Shown here piece by piece: positions 4,810-38,649 of a stretch of DNA of 42,385 nucleotides (its first letter is position 1; each line of letters starts with the position of its first letter). The DNA lies in the NCBI GenBank assembly GCA_964488715.1, contig CAZAVD010000002.1:7093-49477 (forward strand), read 5' to 3'. Both the position numbers and the translations under genes were made by a program. Origin of the DNA: an uncultured Gammaproteobacteria bacterium. GTDB taxonomy: Bacteria; Patescibacteriota; Patescibacteriia; UBA2196. The notes under the pieces are model-generated. The model was not told the origin of the DNA. It saw only the letters and a list, made by a program, of their open reading frames with translations, and made no database searches.

Positions 4810-7269
4810 CTAAACAACAATACTAATTAATTTATTTTTAATAAAAATAATTTTTTTAGGTGTTTTATTATCTAGCCATTTTTGAATTTTTTCAGAATCT
4901 AAAACTACTTTTTTAGCTTCATCTTCAGAAATATTTGCATTTACTAAAATTTTATCTCTAACTTTTCCATTCACTTGAACTACTAACTCTATTTCATCAG
5001 CTTGAATCAAGCTTTCATCATATTCTGGCCACTTTTCTTTGGCAAGTGCTTGATCATTGCCAAGCAAGTGCCATAATTCCTCTGAAATGTGTGGGGCAAA
5101 TGGAGATAATAATAAAATTAAATTTTTATAAATTTCTTTAGAAATATTTTCTTGTTTTTCTAGATTATTTACTAAAATCATCATTTGTGAAATTGCTGTG
5201 TTAAATTTCATTTCTTCAATATCTTCAGTAACTTTTTTAATCGTCTGGTGCATCAAGATATCAAGTTTTGATTTTTGACTTGCAATTTTAACTTTTAAAT
5301 TTTGACTTTTAACTTTTTTTTGTAAATTCCAAACTTTATCCAAAAATCTTTTTACCCCAATTATTCCCTTGTCGCTCCAGGATCCACCATCTTCAAACGG
5401 AGCTAAAAATAAAACATAAGTTCTAAAAACATCTGCTCCATATTTTTTAATATAATCATCCGGAGTGATTGAACTTCCTTTTGATTTTGACATTTTTGTT
5501 CCATCTTCAGCTAAAATCATTCCTTGATGAGTTAATTTTATAAATGGCTCATCAAAATTTATTAATTTTTGATCATGTAAAACTTTTGTGATAAATCTTG
5601 CATACAATAAATGCATAACAGCATGTTCTGCTCCCCCACAATATTGATCAACTGGTAACCACTTATCTACTAAATTTTTATCAAATGCTTTGTCATTTAA
5701 ATCTGGATTTATAAATCTTAAAAAATACCAAGATGAGCACACAAAAGTATCCATTGTTTCTGTACTGCGTTTGGCATCTATTCCACATTTAGGACATTTA
5801 GTATTAACAAAATTTTTAGATCTAGCAAGCGGCGATTCACCCTCATCAGTTGGTTTAAAATCTTCTAATTCAGGCAATTGTACTGGCAAATTTTCATCTA
5901 AAACTTCACCGCATTTTTCACAATAAATAATTGGAATTGGCGCGCCCCAATATCTTTGTCTAGAAATTAGCCAATCGCGCAGCTTATAATTAACAGCTTT
6001 TTTGCCTAATTTATTCTCTTCAAGCCAATCACTAATCTTATTAATTGCATCTTTGGGCTTTGAATTATCTAAAAAATCAGAATTAACCATTTTTCCTGAA
6101 TCTATTTCTGTAAAAGCCTCTTTATCAACATCACCACCTTTAATAACTTCAATAATTTCTAAGTTATATTTCTTAGCAAATTCCCAATCTCTTTCATCAT
6201 GAGCTGGTACAGCCATAATTGCGCCTGTTCCATAATTCATCATCACATAATCTGCAACAAAAATTGGAATTGGTTTGTTATTTACGGGATTAATTGCCTG
6301 AACACCTTTTAATTCAACTCCGGTTTTATTTTTATTTAAATCTCCTCTTTCTAAATCAGATTTTTTACTAGCTTTTTGGATATATTTTTTTACTTCTTGG
6401 AAATTGGAAATTGTATCTTGGAACTTGCTGATAAGCTGATGTTCTGGCGCAATAACCATAAAAGTTGCGCCAAACAAAGTATCAGGTCGTGTAGTAAATA
6501 CTTCAAGTTTAAGGGATCCCTCCGCTCCACTCACTCGTTCCTCACTCGTTCCTGTCGGGATGACAGAAAAAAAGACATTTGCTCCCACAGACTTGCCAAT
6601 CCAATTCTTCTGCATTGTAATTGTTTTTTTAGGCCAATTAATTTTATTATGATCTTGTAATAACTTATCAGCATAATCTGTAATTTTAAAAAACCATTGT
6701 TTTAAATTTTTCTGAACTACTTCTGAATCACATCTTTCACATTTTCCAGAAACAACCTGTTCATTTGCCAATACAGTTTTACAAGAAGGGCACCAATTAA
6801 CTGGGGCTTCTGCTTGATAAGCTAAACCAGCTTTGTATAAAACAGAAAAAATCCATTGTGTCCATTTATAATATTCTGGAGAAGATGTATCAATTTCCTT
6901 TTCCCAATCATACATTAAACCTAATTCCCTAAGTTGCTGTTTTGAATATTCAATATTTTTACTTGTACTTTCAGCTGGATGAACACCTGTCTTAATTGCA
7001 TAATTTTCTGCTGGCAAACCAAACGCATCTGCTCCCATTGGCTGAAAAACATTAAAACCTTGCATTTTTTTGTATCTGCCAAACACATCTGAACCAGTAA
7101 AATTATACCCATGCCCAATATGAATTTTATCGCCAGAAGGATAATAAAACATAACTAAATTATAAAATTTAGTTTTTAATTCATTGTCTAAATCGCAAAA
7201 ATTAGTCTTATTGTCTTCCCAATACTTTTGCCATTTTTTTTCAATTATTTTGTGATTATATTCTTGCAT
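4810..7269 (-). CDS. leuS: Leucine--tRNA ligase
   Basis: YPSGDKIHIGHGYNF (HIGH), VFTTRPDTLFG, KMSKSKGS (KMSKS), 819 aa. Confidence 0.95.
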   Translation of the reverse strand: MQEYNHKIIEKKWQKYWEDNKTNFCDLDNELKTKFYNLVMFYYPSGDKIHIGHGYNFTGSDVFGRYKKMQGFNVFQPMGADAFGLPAENYAIKTGVHPAESTSKNIEYSKQQLRELGLMYDWEKEIDTSSPEYYKWTQWIFSVLYKAGLAYQAEAPVNWCPSCKTVLANEQVVSGKCERCDSEVVQKNLKQWFFKITDYADKLLQDHNKINWPKKTITMQKNWIGKSVGANVFFSVIPTGTSEERVSGAEGSLKLEVFTTRPDTLFGATFMVIAPEHQLISKFQDTISNFQEVKKYIQKASKKSDLERGDLNKNKTGVELKGVQAINPVNNKPIPIFVADYVMMNYGTGAIMAVPAHDERDWEFAKKYNLEIIEVIKGGDVDKEAFTEIDSGKMVNSDFLDNSKPKDAINKISDWLEENKLGKKAVNYKLRDWLISRQRYWGAPIPIIYCEKCGEVLDENLPVQLPELEDFKPTDEGESPLARSKNFVNTKCPKCGIDAKRSTETMDTFVCSSWYFLRFINPDLNDKAFDKNLVDKWLPVDQYCGGAEHAVMHLLYARFITKVLHDQKLINFDEPFIKLTHQGMILAEDGTKMSKSKGSSITPDDYIKKYGADVFRTYVLFLAPFEDGGSWSDKGIIGVKRFLDKVWNLQKKVKSQNLKVKIASQKSKLDILMHQTIKKVTEDIEEMKFNTAISQMMILVNNLEKQENISKEIYKNLILLLSPFAPHISEELWHLLGNDQALAKEKWPEYDESLIQADEIELVVQVNGKVRDKILVNANISEDEAKKVVLDSEKIQKWLDNKTPKKIIFIKNKLISIVV
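6396..6427. repeat. AT-rich heptad-unit element copy inside leuS
   Basis: CTTGGAAATTGGAAATTGTATCTTGGAACTTG; 18-nt core GGAAATTGTATCTTGGAA at 6406-6423, translated FQDTIS. Confidence 0.85.
6514..6564 (-). repeat. Long-form GTCATCC...GGGATCC element in frame in leuS
   Basis: Minus strand GTCATCCCGACAGGAACGAGTGAGGAACGAGTGAGTGGAGCGGAGGGATCC (51 nt, 17 codons); tandem 11-mer GGAACGAGTGA x2; encodes VIPTGTSEERVSGAEGS. Confidence 0.85.
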
Positions 7270-7381: not shown

Positions 7382-8713
7382 TTGCTCTCTTCTCTGCTAC
7401 GCAGTGGGGTTTTTTTATTTAAAAAAATTAGCCAATTATTTGTGTGGCTAATACACCCAATTAACAAAATATTTTACTTTGTTTTTAAAAAAATAATCCT
7501 GCCAATATATAATTTAGTTTATTTTTTTAAGAAGAAACTTCAATCTGAAAAAGAAAATAGTTTAGATAATAAAATCATTTTACTTTTAGCTAATAAATAT
7601 TTAATTTACACATTGGCTGTTATTTTGTCAGCTGGAATTTTAATTAATAATTTCACAATTTCAGGCGCAGCTGCTGAAGATTTAGGTAAAAAAAGTTTAT
7701 TATACAAAATAGCACAAGGCAGTGAGTTTGAAGAAATTATTGAAGAAAGAAGCGCGATTATTGAAGAAAATATTGATAAAAAATCAAAACCAACAACTTC
7801 TTCTGAAACATCCAAAACCATTAGTTTAAATATTGAAAAAACAACTTTAACTCGCAGTGAAAAACCACGGGAAATTGATACATCAAATTTACAAGAAACA
7901 ACTGTGGCTGAAGGTTTGGCGGCTGAAACAATTTCCAAAACTGGATCCATTACTACTCTGTCAGTACCAAAACCTAAATCTGAAATTACAGAATATATTG
8001 TAGAATCTGGTGATACAATTTCAAACATTGCTAAAAAATTCCAAATTTCAATTAATACAATTTTATGGGCAAACGATTTAAGCGGGTTAAGTATTATTCG
8101 TCCAAATGACAAACTAACTATTCCACCAACCAGCGGTGTAATTCATAAAGTTAAAAAAGGTGATACTATTTCCGCTATTGCTAAGAAATATAACATTGAA
8201 CAAAATGCTATTTTAAATTTTAATCAGTTGGTTAATAATGATCAATTATCAATTGGCCAAGTTTTAATTGTGCCAGGTGGTGAAATTAAACAAATTTACC
8301 GTAGAACAACAAGTGGTTTTGCATCAGTCTTTAAACCATCTTCATCACAAAAAAAAGCTCACGGTTTTATTTGGCCAACTGTGTCACGTCGTATTACTCA
8401 ATATTATCATTGGCGTCATCATGCCCTTGATATTGGTGGTAAAACTGGTTCACCACTTTATGCTTCAATGTCTGGAAAAATTACAAAAGCTGGCTGGGGA
8501 CGCGGTTATGGTTATCATGTTGTTATTGATCATGGTGGTGGCAAAAAAACTCTTTACGCTCATATGTCAAAAATTTATGTTCAACGCGGAGATCAAGTTA
8601 CACAAGGATCCGTTATTGGCGCTTTAGGTTCAACTGGATGGTCAACTGGCCCGCATTTACATTTTGAAATTACAATTAATGGAACCAAAGTAAATCCATT
8701 GAGTTATCTTTAA
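7382..8713 (+). CDS. Secreted LysM-LysM-M23 peptidoglycan endopeptidase
   Basis: Two LysM repeats (YIVESGDTISNIAKKF..., HKVKKGDTISAIAKKY...), M23 motifs HHALDIGG and GPHLHFEI; TTG start from track, exact start uncertain. Confidence 0.85.
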   Translation: MLSSLLRSGVFLFKKISQLFVWLIHPINKIFYFVFKKIILPIYNLVYFFKKKLQSEKENSLDNKIILLLANKYLIYTLAVILSAGILINNFTISGAAAEDLGKKSLLYKIAQGSEFEEIIEERSAIIEENIDKKSKPTTSSETSKTISLNIEKTTLTRSEKPREIDTSNLQETTVAEGLAAETISKTGSITTLSVPKPKSEITEYIVESGDTISNIAKKFQISINTILWANDLSGLSIIRPNDKLTIPPTSGVIHKVKKGDTISAIAKKYNIEQNAILNFNQLVNNDQLSIGQVLIVPGGEIKQIYRRTTSGFASVFKPSSSQKKAHGFIWPTVSRRITQYYHWRHHALDIGGKTGSPLYASMSGKITKAGWGRGYGYHVVIDHGGGKKTLYAHMSKIYVQRGDQVTQGSVIGALGSTGWSTGPHLHFEITINGTKVNPLSYL

Positions 8714-8715
8714 AT

Positions 8716-8762
8716 GGTAGTCATCCTGAGCGACCTTTAGGATCGTTAGGAGCCCAAGGATC
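8716..8762 (+). repeat. Long-form GTCATCC...AAGGATC element
   Basis: GGTAGTCATCCTGAGCGACCTTTAGGATCGTTAGGAGCCCAAGGATC; near-identical to 24527-24572; begins 2 nt after the M23 stop. Confidence 0.9.
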
Positions 8763-8771
8763 TTATTGTAA

Positions 8772-8822
8772 AATTTCCAATTTCCAAGATACGATTTCCA
8801 AATAAATTTCAAATTCCAAAAT
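8772..8822 (-). repeat. AT-rich heptad-unit element, intergenic copy
   Basis: Reverse complement ATTTTGGAATTTGAAATTTATTTGGAAATCGTATCTTGGAAATTGGAAATT aligns with rsmA 1549-1606. Confidence 0.85.
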
Positions 8823-8826
8823 AAAA

Positions 8827-8861
8827 AATCCGCAGTGAAAATCTACTGCGGATTTTGTTTT
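8827..8861 (+). terminator. Rho-independent terminator, possibly bidirectional
   Basis: AATCCGCAGT-GAAAATCT-ACTGCGGATT then TTTGTTTT; A-run upstream. Confidence 0.75.
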
Positions 8862-8879
8862 GACGCGTTAAAAATCTTT

Positions 8880-9038
8880 TCAGAAAATAGTTTCTGTGAC
8901 TAATTCTGCAGATTCATTGCAATCTTTTATAAATTTCTGAGCAACTCCTGGTCGCACATCTTCATCTAGCTCCGCAATATTTTTTGCAGTAAACTTTAGT
9001 TTAACGCGCAACAATTCGTGTTTTTTATTTTTTTGCAA
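8880..9038 (-). CDS. Unannotated 52-aa ORF (TTG start) with strong Shine-Dalgarno
   Basis: AAGGAGGA, 4-nt spacer, TTG; (M)QKNKKHELLRVKLKFTAKNIAELDEDVRPGVAQKFIKDCNESAELVTETIF; TGA at 8882-8880; below the ORF-track size cut-off. Confidence 0.5.
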   Translation of the reverse strand: MQKNKKHELLRVKLKFTAKNIAELDEDVRPGVAQKFIKDCNESAELVTETIF

Positions 9039-9112
9039 AAATCCTCCTTGTTATGTGTTGTGAATTATTTTACCTAACTTTATACTTTATTCACAATATA
9101 GTCAAATTTATC

Positions 9113-9150
9113 TGTCGCCAGATAGGAACGATCGTTCCTATCTGGCGACA
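9113..9150. repeat. Perfect 38-bp palindrome, downstream flank of Cas2-like gene
   Basis: TGTCGCCAGATAGGAACGATCGTTCCTATCTGGCGACA. Confidence 0.95.
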
Positions 9151-9174
9151 AAATTATTTTGTTTTTTAATAAAA

Positions 9175-9729
9175 TTATATAACTTTCTTAGCAATAATAA
9201 ACTTTACAAATTGACTTAAATCACATTTATGAACTAAATGTCTGATTAATTTAAAAGATTGTTCTCTATTGGTTTGAAAAACACTATTTTGAAGATAATC
9301 AAAACCTAAACCATAAAGCGATTTTCTAAAAAGGTTTCTTGCTCTTTTTAATCTTTCTGGTACATCAAAAATAACTATATAAATTTCATTACTTTTTTTC
9401 TTTTTAGAACGCTTCATTTCCAGAGGATAAGAAATTAATTTTAACCAACCTTTTTTAGTTAACATTAATCTTTTTTTCTTGTCTTCTATTATAAGATCAC
9501 TTTTTTTTAATTTAGTAATCATTTGACTAATTCTTCTTTTTTCTTTTATTTCTTCTCTTTTTTCTTCATTTTTCACTTGTCTACTTTTATAAAGGTCAAA
9601 CAAATTAGGTCTATAAATATATTCTCTAAAATCAATCAATCCGCCAACTGCTCCGCCTATTATTTGTAAAACTTCTTTGGTTAACGAAGGTTTAAAAAGC
9701 TCTTTTTTATTATTATTTTTTGTTTTCAT
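9175..9729 (-). CDS. wHTH + Cas2-like (PaaX-family-like) protein, paralogue A
   Basis: IYIVIFDVPERLKRARNLFRKSLYGLGFDYLQNSVF resembles the Cas2 / PaaX middle-domain signature; LIIEDKKKRLMLTKKGW is wHTH-like; paralogue at 24714-25232. Confidence 0.6.
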   Translation of the reverse strand: MKTKNNNKKELFKPSLTKEVLQIIGGAVGGLIDFREYIYRPNLFDLYKSRQVKNEEKREEIKEKRRISQMITKLKKSDLIIEDKKKRLMLTKKGWLKLISYPLEMKRSKKKKSNEIYIVIFDVPERLKRARNLFRKSLYGLGFDYLQNSVFQTNREQSFKLIRHLVHKCDLSQFVKFIIAKKVI

Positions 9730-9741
9730 AAACTTTTTTAG

Positions 9742-9779
9742 TGTAGCGTAATAGGAACGATCGTTCCTATTACGCTACA
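9742..9779. repeat. Perfect 38-bp palindrome, upstream flank of Cas2-like gene
   Basis: TGTAGCGTAATAGGAACGATCGTTCCTATTACGCTACA; shares the 20-bp core with 9113-9150. Confidence 0.95.
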
Positions 9780-9821
9780 ATATTTTAATTAAAATATTAA
9801 TAATGTCTAATAAAACTAATT

Positions 9822-18170: not shown

Positions 18171-18277
18171 AAATTACAAATTACAATTTCTAATAAATTT
18201 CTAAATTAATAATTTTTTAAATTGGGCATTAGACATTCTTAATTTCATTGGAAATTAGAAATTATAATTTAGAAATT
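18171..18277. repeat. AT-rich heptad-unit inverted-repeat (MITE-like) element, copy 2
   Basis: Left arm AAATTACAAATTACAATTTCTAAT (23/24 to 105-128); right arm ATTAGAAATTATAATTTAGAAATT; inner TTAGACATT and ATTGGAAATTAGAAATT shared with copy 1. Confidence 0.65.
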
Positions 18278-23852: not shown

Positions 23853-24518
23853 TTAAAATAAAAAATCTTTCATCCTCTCATACAAATCTTTAGTTGCAAC
23901 AACATCTCTCATACAATATTCAGCTATTTTTTTATATTCTTTATTTTTAAATAAATTATTTACTTCAAGTCCTGAAACACCTTCATCTTTTGGATTTTTT
24001 ATTCCAAATGTTTGGCACAAACTTTCCAAAGAAAGTTTTCTAAATGCTCCATAAAAACTTAATTGATCCATTATATCTAAATGTTCTTTTGTTGAATAGC
24101 GATAAGGCATTAAATTTTTTGTTGGTTTTAAATTATGATAAATTGAGCGGATAATAATAAAAGGGCAATCAAAGCCTCTTCCATTAAAAGAAATTATTTG
24201 TTCAAAAAATCTAATATCTTGCCAAAAACTTTCTAAAATTCCTTTTTCATCTTTAACAATATATTCTATATTATTTTTTGTATAATTTTCTATATTATTT
24301 TTTGGTGCTTGAAAATATACTTTGCCTTGCCCTGAATCTGAATTTAACATTGCAATAGCAACTACTTCTCCGCTAATTGGCAATAAACCAGTGCGTGATA
24401 AAATATCCTCACGCTCTTTTTCATCTTTAGCGTTTTTAATTAAATATTCTTTTATTATTGGATCAAGTTCATCTTTTTCTTGACCACAAGTTTCAATATC
24501 AAATATTAATTTAGGCAT
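23853..24518 (-). CDS. RNase H-fold 3'-5' exonuclease related to the PolB exonuclease domain
   Basis: LIFDIETCG (ExoI DxE), SFNGRGFDCPFI (ExoII), YCMRDVVATKDLY (ExoIII). Confidence 0.75.
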   Translation of the reverse strand: MPKLIFDIETCGQEKDELDPIIKEYLIKNAKDEKEREDILSRTGLLPISGEVVAIAMLNSDSGQGKVYFQAPKNNIENYTKNNIEYIVKDEKGILESFWQDIRFFEQIISFNGRGFDCPFIIIRSIYHNLKPTKNLMPYRYSTKEHLDIMDQLSFYGAFRKLSLESLCQTFGIKNPKDEGVSGLEVNNLFKNKEYKKIAEYCMRDVVATKDLYERMKDFLF

Positions 24519-24526
24519 ATTTTTAA

Positions 24527-24572
24527 GGTAGTCATCCTGAGCGACCTTTAGGATTTTAGGAGCCGAAGGATC
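24527..24572 (+). repeat. Long-form GTCATCC...AAGGATC element
   Basis: GGTAGTCATCCTGAGCGACCTTTAGGATTTTAGGAGCCGAAGGATC; lies 8 nt upstream of the exonuclease ATG on the opposite strand. Confidence 0.9.
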
Positions 24573-24661: not shown

Positions 24662-24696
24662 ATAGACTCTTAACTCACGGCCGTGAGTTAATGACA
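24662..24696. repeat. 35-nt repeat with perfect 20-bp palindromic core, downstream flank of Cas2-like paralogue B
   Basis: ATAGACTCTTAACTCACGGCCGTGAGTTAATGACA; core TAACTCACGGCCGTGAGTTA. Confidence 0.9.
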
Positions 24697-24713: not shown

Positions 24714-25232
24714 TTATATTAGGCCAAACCTTTCCTTTAGTTTATCCTCACTACTGATTTTATCAGCCTCAATATACTGAAACCAATCACCTTCTCTAAA
24801 TCCTGGTATAATATCATACAAATAATTTAATACATCATAAGGGAATACCCAAACACTTTTTTGTAATTGATAGAATCCTATATCTATTAAGCTTTTTCTT
24901 AAATTATCTCTAAATTTTCTTTTTGTTTCTGGTATATCAAATATTAGGATGCGCCATTTTTTGTCCCATTTAGCTTTATCAATTTTATTTTTAATAATTA
25001 TTTTTGAAACTTCTTGCTTGCCTTTTTTAGTTAAATCACATCTTTTTTTACTTTTATTGTATTTAATATATTTACCTCTTTCCAAGTTACGATAAGCATA
25101 ATAAGGTATACCGCCAATTGATTGTTTAATATAACCATAAGGATTAATTAAATAAAAAATCAACCCTTCATTTTCATCAATAAAATTTTTTAAAAATTCT
25201 ATTGTTTTTTGACCTAATTTTCTTGTTTTCAT
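24714..25232 (-). CDS. wHTH + Cas2-like (PaaX-family-like) protein, paralogue B
   Basis: WDKKWRILIFDIPETKRKFRDNLRKSLIDIGFYQLQKSVWVFP matches the PaaX-type signature; LERGKYIKYNKSKKRCDLTKKGK is wHTH-like. Confidence 0.65.
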   Translation of the reverse strand: MKTRKLGQKTIEFLKNFIDENEGLIFYLINPYGYIKQSIGGIPYYAYRNLERGKYIKYNKSKKRCDLTKKGKQEVSKIIIKNKIDKAKWDKKWRILIFDIPETKRKFRDNLRKSLIDIGFYQLQKSVWVFPYDVLNYLYDIIPGFREGDWFQYIEADKISSEDKLKERFGLI

Positions 25233-25234
25233 AT

Positions 25235-25269
25235 ATAGACTTTTATCTCACGATCGTGAGTTAATGATA
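25235..25269. repeat. 35-nt repeat with palindromic core, upstream flank of paralogue B
   Basis: ATAGACTTTTATCTCACGATCGTGAGTTAATGATA; 30/35 identical to 24662-24696 in direct orientation; overlapped by a TTGCTT-17-TATCAT promoter on the minus strand. Confidence 0.9.
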
Positions 25270-34759: not shown

Positions 34760-34791
34760 CCAACGTTAGAGTAACGTTACCCTAACGTTGG
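34760..34791. promoter_or_regulatory. 32-bp near-perfect palindrome with three AACGTT hexamers at 11-bp spacing
   Basis: CCAACGTTAGAGTAACGTTACCCTAACGTTGG; 40-70 nt upstream of the HD gene ATG (34720). Confidence 0.6.
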
Positions 34792-34976: not shown

Positions 34977-35006
34977 CTGGATTCCCGCTTTCGCGGGAAT
35001 GACAGG
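34977..35006 (-). repeat. Short-form hairpin repeat
   Basis: Minus strand CCTGTCATTCCCGCGAAAGCGGGAATCCAG. Confidence 0.9.
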
Positions 35007-35011
35007 AAGAG

Positions 35012-35041
35012 CTGGACTCCTGCCTACGCAGGAGTGACAGG
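35012..35041 (-). repeat. Short-form hairpin repeat, 4 nt after the GIY-YIG stop
   Basis: Minus strand CCTGTCACTCCTGCGTAGGCAGGAGTCCAG. Confidence 0.9.
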
Positions 35042-35045
35042 AAAA

Positions 35046-35345: not shown

Positions 35346-35380
35346 ATATGTGGTGGTTTTAATTATTATTTATTTTAAAT

Positions 35381-35408
35381 GGATCCCTGCCTACGCAGGG
35401 ATGACAGG
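35381..35408 (-). repeat. Short-form hairpin repeat, 35 nt upstream of the GIY-YIG ATG
   Basis: Minus strand CCTGTCATCCCTGCGTAGGCAGGGATCC. Confidence 0.9.

Positions 35409-35485: not shown

Positions 35486-38649
<3,164 letters not shown>

Follow-up and report, generated by a model that had tools for sequence, protein, structure and literature searches.

Two perfect palindromes bracket a small gene

Why is a small bacterial gene bracketed by two long perfect palindromes that differ from each other only by mirrored changes, and what do these palindromes do? The question is raised by a 42,385-nucleotide stretch of contig CAZAVD010000002.1, from an uncultured bacterium assigned to the Patescibacteriota, which at its full length is the window referred to throughout (sites and segments are given without strand). 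A minus-strand open reading frame (ORF) at 9175-9729 codes for a 184-aa protein, and a palindrome stands at either end of it: palindrome A (9742-9779; TGTAGCGTAATAGGAACGATCGTTCCTATTACGCTACA) lies 12 nt 5' of the ATG, and palindrome B (9113-9150; TGTCGCCAGATAGGAACGATCGTTCCTATCTGGCGACA) lies 24 nt 3' of the stop. Because the ORF is on the minus strand, A is the upstream and B the downstream site. Both are 38 bp long and perfect, with arms of 19 nt and zero spacer, and both contain the same 20-bp core (ATAGGAACGATCGTTCCTAT) with the center CGA|TCG; the core has no other copy in the window even at three mismatches, and shuffled sequences give an expectation of 0. Four changes in each arm distinguish the two sites, at 11, 12, 13, and 16 nt from the dyad, and every one is mirrored (0 unmirrored). 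We propose that the palindromes are probably the cognate double-stranded DNA operators of the protein encoded between them, a mini-PaaX that would act as an autoregulated homodimer, with A as the candidate autoregulatory operator and B as a proposed second site.

Re-reading of the window bears out what an initial annotation, made from the sequence alone, had said of the palindromes, their distances, the promoter-like hexamers, and a 52-aa ORF downstream, and the mirrored changes are as it described them. The cassette is the same in ten independent metagenome assemblies, with 0 to 1 single-nucleotide polymorphism over 1139 bp and unique flanks, and is thus not an assembly artifact. If AT-only cases are set aside, the only other perfect zero-spacer palindromes in the window with arms of 11 nt or longer are a 22-bp site of a paralog described below and one intra-coding instance.

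The protein joins a predicted winged helix to a Cas2 fold

The gene had been called Cas2-like/PaaX-like, and profile and structure searches agree. The 184-aa protein matches the Pfam family PaaX_M (PF20803, "PaaX central Cas2-like domain") at 1e-9 (38.8 bits, cutoff 24) and the NCBIfam cas2 model (TIGR01573) at 26 bits against a cutoff of 24.5. Its other Pfam matches amount to a weak one to Mrr_N alone, it gives no match to PaaX_N at E ≤ 1, and in PADLOC it matches Cas2 models only and no other defense or toxin family. In an AlphaFold2 model built on 30 homologs, with a mean predicted local distance difference test score (pLDDT) of 81, residues 1-39 are poorly predicted, residues 40-100 form a helix/beta-wing/helix unit (pLDDT >90), and residues 115-181 form a beta-alpha-beta-beta-alpha-beta domain. 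Foldseek searches with this model return Cas2 chains and VapD (3ui3, 6zi1) as the best PDB matches and align E. coli PaaX (8a39) across 125 columns, so that Cas2, VapD, and PaaX, the three comparisons suggested at the outset, are all among the best matches.

The family profile divides in the same way: its C-terminal half finds Cas2, and its N-terminal half finds the winged-helix proteins AspA, F-93, and RosR as weak matches (E 0.04 to 0.9). Invariant residues are D122, P124, E125, R131, R135, Q147, and S149, within a motif FD(I/V)PE...R..R...Q.SVF that reads IVIFDVPE...R..R...LQNSVF in the 184-aa protein itself. The invariant aspartate aligns with the beta1 aspartate of Cas2 and with the catalytic aspartate of Cas2 and VapD, and the QxSVF motif aligns too. 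The protein stops directly after the Cas2-like domain, and PF08223 (PaaX_C) is seen only in longer (255 to 282 aa) distant matches. It is thus effectively PaaX minus the C-terminal ligand-binding domain.

A word-indexed homolog search with the single protein returned only itself, and an exhaustive HMMER search was used to define the family. This gives 734 clusters at 50% identity, mostly of 170- to 200-aa relatives. The named ones are from Patescibacteria such as Azam-, Kaiser-, Nomura-, Sung-, and Zambryskibacteria, and they are labeled "hypothetical," "Cas2," or "PaaX."

The site-gene-site layout is a family-wide property

The closest homolog (42% identity) also has a perfect 38-bp palindrome (ATGACCCTATTATTCACGATCGTGAATAATAGGGTCAT), which ends 34 nt 5' of its ATG; also among the closest homologs, P0003 and P0004 have imperfect sites only, or none. 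Many of 20 loci from species-representative genomes have palindromes of 28 to 56 bp on one or both sides of the gene, and a relaxed search finds imperfect ones in most of the others. The arms vary from locus to locus, and the center is CGATCG or CGGCCG. An upstream site is present in 19 of 25 family genes, with the dyad mostly 18 to 72 nt 5' of the ATG, and a site 3' of the stop is present in 17 to 18 of the 25, usually 10 to 115 nt away.

These sites are tightly linked to the gene. When palindromes are counted as those with a CGRYCG center and at least 10 of 13 flanking positions symmetric, 28 of 29 lie within 300 bp of the ends of a family gene, a zone that makes up 8.6% of the 178 kb of family loci and window, and about 50 kb of related loci without the gene contain none. 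In at least 8 of 17 loci the downstream site is present even though the gene that follows is convergent, so its role is not simply that of an operator for the following gene. The site-gene-site layout is a property of the family as a whole.

We note two further observations on these sites. The sole family-type dyad away from a recognized family gene is at L011 4559-4598 (GCTATACCTAAGATGAGCGA|TCGCTCAAAATAGGTATAGT), about 1.1 kb downstream of the family gene of that locus; its arms are different, and the region has no clear ORF. In three independent assemblies (L031, L032, and L033, positions 1-53), the contig of the closest homolog stops a few nucleotides from the outer edge of the upstream palindrome. 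Long perfect palindromes thus seem to interrupt de Bruijn assemblies, and such sites may be under-represented at contig ends.

Site anatomy favors a duplex binding site over a hairpin

Alignment of 78 half-sites on the dyad separates the sites into zones. Counted from the dyad, positions 1-3 are R, G, C and hold nearly all of the family-wide information, giving the center CGR|YCG, in which A or G is chosen independently in each half (e.g., CGA|CCG in L156 and L023). Positions 8-18 are lineage-specific yet 87 to 97% symmetric; at positions 5-7 symmetry is just 69 to 77%, and it falls off again past positions 18-20. A comparison of the upstream with the downstream site of each gene shows positions 1-4 and 8-18 to be those that are kept. 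The sites thus look like two contact zones and not a uniform stem. Similar winged helices tend to go with similar arms (Mantel r = 0.37, p = 0.0002), a correlation that shared ancestry alone could yield.

The palindromes could instead work as nucleic acid hairpins, either as stem-loops at the 5' and 3' ends of the mRNA (stabilizing, terminating, or serving as substrates or binding sites for a Cas2/VapD-like RNase) or as DNA cruciforms or single-stranded DNA hairpins that the protein recognizes. Palindromes A and B do fold as stems of 17 to 19 bp, at -27 to -34 kcal/mol (z about -10), and several homologs have perfect palindromes of 40 to 56 bp. A promoter-like TTAGAC-17-TAAAAT (9782-9810, minus strand; a consensus match only) ends 2 nt ahead of palindrome A, and if it is real, the transcript would begin at the first bases of A and carry both hairpins. 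The mirrored differences between A and B and the conserved aspartate motif are also in line with such a function, as are the Cas2 and VapD relatives, which are nucleases of RNA or DNA.

The mismatches within sites point the other way. Of the 63, 29 are clustered mid-stem at positions 5-7, and by type on the sense strand they comprise 11 that are G·U-compatible, 21 A·C, and 31 transversion-type, with no G·U bias. The central 2 to 4 nt, which would form the loop of a hairpin and could not pair, are symmetric in 82 to 87% of sites and are the most conserved part. The differences between upstream and downstream sites across the family are mostly uncompensated (13 mirrored versus 49 unmirrored), and no U-tract comes after palindrome A or B on the gene's own strand, in contrast to the canonical hairpin and T-run terminator that lies 3' of the nearby 52-aa ORF (8825-8856, minus strand). 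The looser middle zone, the lack of G·U bias, the symmetric unpairable center, and a span like that of the PaaX operator favor a duplex protein-binding site, and we consider a hairpin function unlikely. The initial annotation took mirrored covariation to imply selection for self-complementarity; the window pair, in which every difference is mirrored, is the extreme case, and as a general signature mirrored covariation is weakened by the family-wide data. Of the two explanations it offered for the symmetry, a symmetric operator coevolving with its protein is the better fit to the family-wide data.

Proposed autoregulation and the points against it

Seen directly are the fold of the protein and the sites, with their linkage to the gene across the family and their two-part anatomy; binding, dimerization, repression, and all roles of the downstream site are inferred. 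The Cas2-fold half would mediate dimerization, on the model of PaaX and Cas2. Since the CGR|YCG center is common to the whole family, a conserved part of the protein presumably contacts it, and this may be the Cas2-like dimer seated on the dyad; the lineage-specific arms, at 8 to 18 bp, would be contacted by the two winged helices. The upstream site extends from 2 nt past a -10-like box to 12 nt before the ATG and would cover the likely transcription start, for which reason the bound protein would be expected to bar or block RNA polymerase and thereby repress the gene that encodes it, in the manner of PaaX at the Px promoter. In both family genes of the window, the -10-like box abuts the left arm of the upstream site and the ATG follows 10 to 12 nt on without a Shine-Dalgarno sequence, and in several homologs the right arm of the upstream site itself forms or ends in a TATAAT-like box; with any of these promoters, the start region would lie under a bound dimer. 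The downstream site, as part of a self-contained unit, may bind a second dimer, giving either tighter repression by looping of the gene of about 600 bp or a roadblock that insulates the unit from neighboring transcription.

Several points weigh against this interpretation. Perfect symmetry over 38 to 56 bp, with the presumed spacer included, exceeds what a dimeric regulator needs. The all-mirrored changes of the window pair are not predicted by independent selection on half-sites and need a symmetrizing force, either a mutational process, for which quasipalindrome template switching is a known candidate, or selection in this lineage for a hairpin or cruciform. An operator 3' of the stop is unusual, and loci with a convergent next gene have one as well. 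The conserved Cas2 motif with its aspartate hints at an activity beyond dimerization. Promoter-like hexamers are no more numerous in this region (~27% GC) than in shuffled sequences, and there is no other full site within the 42-kb window, hence no visible regulon.

Apparent gain of the segment and the question of mobility

The three closest PilB relatives that were found (L161 at 82% identity, L159 and L160 at 79%) keep the gene order S1, FtsH, 338-aa protein, PilB, M23 peptidase, and LeuRS. In all three, pilB and the peptidase gene are 2 nt apart (TAA-aa-TTA), with no trace of the module. Since the gap in the relatives is just 2 nt, the whole 1.1-kb segment between the pilB stop and the M23 peptidase stop (8714-9821), which carries the entire module, appears to be extra DNA in the window's lineage, most simply gained. 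This segment, which also has the 52-aa ORF, its terminator, and other short repeats, reaches past the palindromes by 42 and 400 bp. The ends of the segment have no terminal repeats and no target duplication beyond a possible TTA, and the empty sites are without a solo palindrome. The module is accessory, and nothing shows the palindromes to be mobile ends. Comparison with empty pilB-M23 loci had been suggested as a way to find clean insertion borders, and the extra DNA ends elsewhere than at the palindromes.

These data bear on whether site, gene, and site make up a small mobile or self-propagating cassette, with dimer-bound palindromes as its ends and a protein that cuts or recombines at the CGR|YCG dyad, functionally like terminal repeats plus a transposase or like REP/RAYT. 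The accessory nature of the module is in keeping with this, as are the unrelated neighborhoods in which family members are found, bracketing that is independent of the neighboring genes, the invariant Cas2-type aspartate motif, the one solo site (L011 position 4579), and the fact that a palindromic site is a direct and an inverted repeat at once. Besides the position of the borders, several findings argue against it. No near-identical multiple copies are seen, and the two paralogs of the window share only 42% identity, over 67 aa, and have different site arms. The palindromes are not dispersed, as judged both by the search for the core in the window and by the family-wide linkage, and relatives of the family are absent from IMG/VR viral contigs, GenBank phages, and PLSDB plasmids. 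The sites are each internally symmetric yet mutually different, unlike the hybrid attL/attR products of a crossover at the dyad, and hybrid attL/attR sites were rejected on this ground. A cassette of this kind is unlikely, and the suggestion of a selfish element analogous to RAYT/REP or IS200-type ones in particular is not supported, given the lack of dispersal in the searched sequence, the lack of a transposase family match, the Cas2 fold, and indel borders that lie elsewhere. What keeps the hairpin and mobile-cassette explanations alive is mainly the perfect symmetry of the pair, the conserved Cas2 aspartate motif, and the patchy distribution.

A related possibility, which we regard as improbable, is that the Cas2-fold half does more than dimerize and reads, and perhaps nicks or cleaves, the CGR|YCG dyad, with site, gene, and site forming a self-contained, self-propagating or self-excising cassette. 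In its favor are the invariant aspartate motif, a module that is patchily distributed and apparently gained, and the perfect symmetry of this pair. If true, this would be a free-living, sequence-specific relative of Cas2 and would show how the Cas2 fold acts on DNA outside CRISPR systems.

The unit might also be a fused toxin-antitoxin-like or addiction-type selfish gene, in which a VapD/Cas2-like RNase toxin is joined to a winged-helix autorepressor and the palindromes are only tight autoregulatory operators; this is compatible with the operator interpretation and differs from it in biological role. VapD toxins among the best fold matches, the retained aspartate motif, and a stand-alone, autoregulated-looking unit with a patchy distribution and no conserved neighbors would all suit such a gene. 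It is nonetheless improbable, given that there is no conserved partner gene, that the 52-aa ORF is unique to this locus, and that the PADLOC matches are limited to Cas2 models.

A metagenome scan with the 18-mer TAGGAACGATCGTTCCTA found it in at least 120 unrelated, mostly high-GC soil-type contigs (L034-L153); no family gene is present on any of these, and among the matches listed none is from the window's organism. Most of these contigs share the context tcgttcTAGGAACGATCGTTCCTAttcgtc, a GAAC-N4-GTTC motif that recalls LexA boxes of the Gram-positive type. Generic genome-wide repeats, or chance or assembly artifacts, with no special link to the gene are highly improbable even with the 18-mer on these contigs and with contigs of one homolog ending at its palindrome in three assemblies, given that the contigs are mostly high-GC, lack the family gene, and for the most part share another context, that the window core is found only at the two bracketing positions with 0 expected, that 28 of 29 sites are beside the gene, and that the ten assemblies agree with unique flanks.

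Two candidate identities were also rejected. A LexA box does not account for the sites, as the GAAC-N4-GTTC resemblance is specific to the arms of this one member. A CRISPR mini-array is likewise rejected: the tandem repeats of the window include no CRISPR array, and no Cas1 family is represented among the genes within 5 kb on either side, in agreement with the initial annotation, which had noted neither cas1 nor an array.

The locus and its neighbors

Read on the minus strand, the locus consists of pilB (11663-9822), a promoter-like box, palindrome A, the 184-aa gene, palindrome B, a second promoter-like box, the 52-aa ORF (9038-8880), the terminator (8856-8825), and the convergent LysM/M23 peptidase gene. 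The second box, TTGACT-17-TAAAGT (9077-9105, minus strand), begins 7 nt past palindrome B and, like the first, is a consensus match only. The 52-aa ORF (minus strand) has AAGGAGGA ahead of its start and is called in most assemblies; it has no protein-family match, and no homolog of it is encoded beside other family members. This, together with the convergent next gene in many loci, weakens the earlier suggestion that the module gates the small ORF. The neighbors of the 184-aa gene code for S1, FtsH, PilB, LysM/M23 peptidase, LeuRS, and an HD protein, and no paa genes are among them. An Rfam scan of the window finds a tRNA as the sole match.

A second family member in the window

The window codes for a second member of the family, a 172-aa paralog (24714-25232, minus strand) that matches PaaX_M at 1.2e-21 (77 bits). 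It too is bracketed, with an upstream dyad site (TTAACTCACGATCGTGAGATAA; 25243-25264) 10 nt 5' of its ATG and a downstream dyad site (TTAACTCACGGCCGTGAGTTAA; 24670-24691) 22 nt 3' of its stop, and the two differ by a mirrored AT-to-GC change exactly at the dyad center. Their mutual repeat continues for ~20 nt past the palindrome in direct orientation (TCATTAACTCACGRYCGTGAGWTAARAGTCTATRTWTGAAA), and the downstream copy looks like a duplicated operator plus leader. Downstream of the paralog are a PolB-type 3'-5' exonuclease-like gene (23853-24518; PF10108, 4.8e-24) and then a DUF4258-like 110-aa ORF.

A repeat of 46 to 48 nt (...CCTAAAGGTCGCTCAGGATGACTACC) is present downstream of both family genes, on the minus strand at 8698-8743 and 24509-24554 (core at 8716-8741 and 24527-24552). 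One copy abuts the M23 peptidase stop and the other is just 5' of the ATG of the PolB-exonuclease-like gene; the repeat has no stable fold (z about 0) and was not found in any of the other loci compared. Several other repeats and palindromes are scattered in the window. A hairpin-containing element of ~29 to 35 nt (TGGACTCCTGCCTACGCAGGAGTGACAGG) is present in three copies at 34977-35043 and 35380-35408, and a short AT-rich motif (TTGGAAATTGTATCTTGGAAATTG) is found at 1572-1604, 6401-6433, and 35898-35930, and also at 190-223, 18244-18277, and 8771-8812, one copy being inside the 1.1-kb extra segment. A GC-rich perfect 26-bp palindrome (GTCCCGTCGCTCGCGAGCGACGGGAC) at 1382-1407 lies within a 324-aa minus-strand ORF (986-1960), and a near-perfect 32-bp palindrome (CCAACGTTAGAGTAAC|GTTACCCTAACGTTGG) at 34760-34791 is of another type, without the CGRYCG center.

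Comparison with known systems

The resemblance to REP/RAYT and IS200/IS605 systems is that of a gene with lineage-specific palindromic sequences on both sides. Here, however, there is no match to Y1 HUH/TnpA families, the fold is that of Cas2, the palindromes are not dispersed in the searched sequence, and the sites are perfect or bipartite dyads, whereas those of REP/RAYT and IS200/IS605 are imperfect hairpins with asymmetric guide sequences. The indel borders, at 42 and 400 bp outside the sites, set the module further apart from IS200/IS605 elements. Another comparison is with autoregulated winged-helix proteins that bind long palindromic sites, such as AspA, an archaeal partition protein with a palindromic binding site upstream of its gene; the N-terminal half of the family is a weak profile match to it (E 0.04 to 0.12). 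Mini-PaaX differs in being encoded by a stand-alone chromosomal gene without ParA/ParB partners, and AspA is without a Cas2-like domain.

Cas2 and VapD share with the C-terminal half of mini-PaaX the ferredoxin-like fold and the aligned invariant aspartate, and the TIGR01573 cutoff is passed. Cas2 is dimeric and contacts duplex DNA in Cas1-Cas2 complexes. Mini-PaaX differs in the fused winged helix, in the lack of a CRISPR array in the window and of Cas1 within 5 kb, and in the lack of a VapX-like partner. Cas2 is not known to be linked to specific palindromic sites, unlike the mini-PaaX family.

The closest parallel in architecture is with PaaX. In E. coli, the site bound by PaaX is TGATTC-N27-GAATCA (39 bp), and the protein acts as a repressor of its own promoter via steric hindrance (PMC9493321). 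Mini-PaaX resembles this phenylacetyl-CoA-responsive repressor of the paa operon (E. coli, Pseudomonas; 8a39, 3l09) in having a predicted winged helix followed by a Cas2-like middle domain, and its 38-bp sites, at which binding is predicted, span the same length as the 39-bp operator and overlap the likely promoter and start region. It differs in lacking the PaaX_C ligand-binding domain, a PaaX_N sequence match, and paa neighbors, in having a continuous palindrome with a conserved CGR|YCG center where PaaX has two hexamers and a free spacer, in the second site 3' of the stop, and in the Cas2 FD(I/V)PE...QxSVF motif that the family keeps.

A literature search found no description of this system, no paper that treats PaaX together with Cas2, and none of relevance on palindromes in Patescibacteria. 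What is new here is a putative regulator of the PaaX type that has a winged helix and a Cas2 fold but no ligand domain, with a bipartite dyad of family-wide CGR|YCG center on each side of its gene. Patescibacteria have small genomes and few recognizable regulators, and a family of 734 clusters without described function becomes testable, as each member comes with its own predicted site, twice. The comparison also advises caution against annotating these genes as CRISPR Cas2 and raises the question of a DNA-directed role for the conserved Cas2 motif outside CRISPR. The family offers dozens of natural protein-site pairs with which to learn how a winged-helix/Cas2-fold dimer reads DNA, and it could supply orthogonal repressor-operator pairs.

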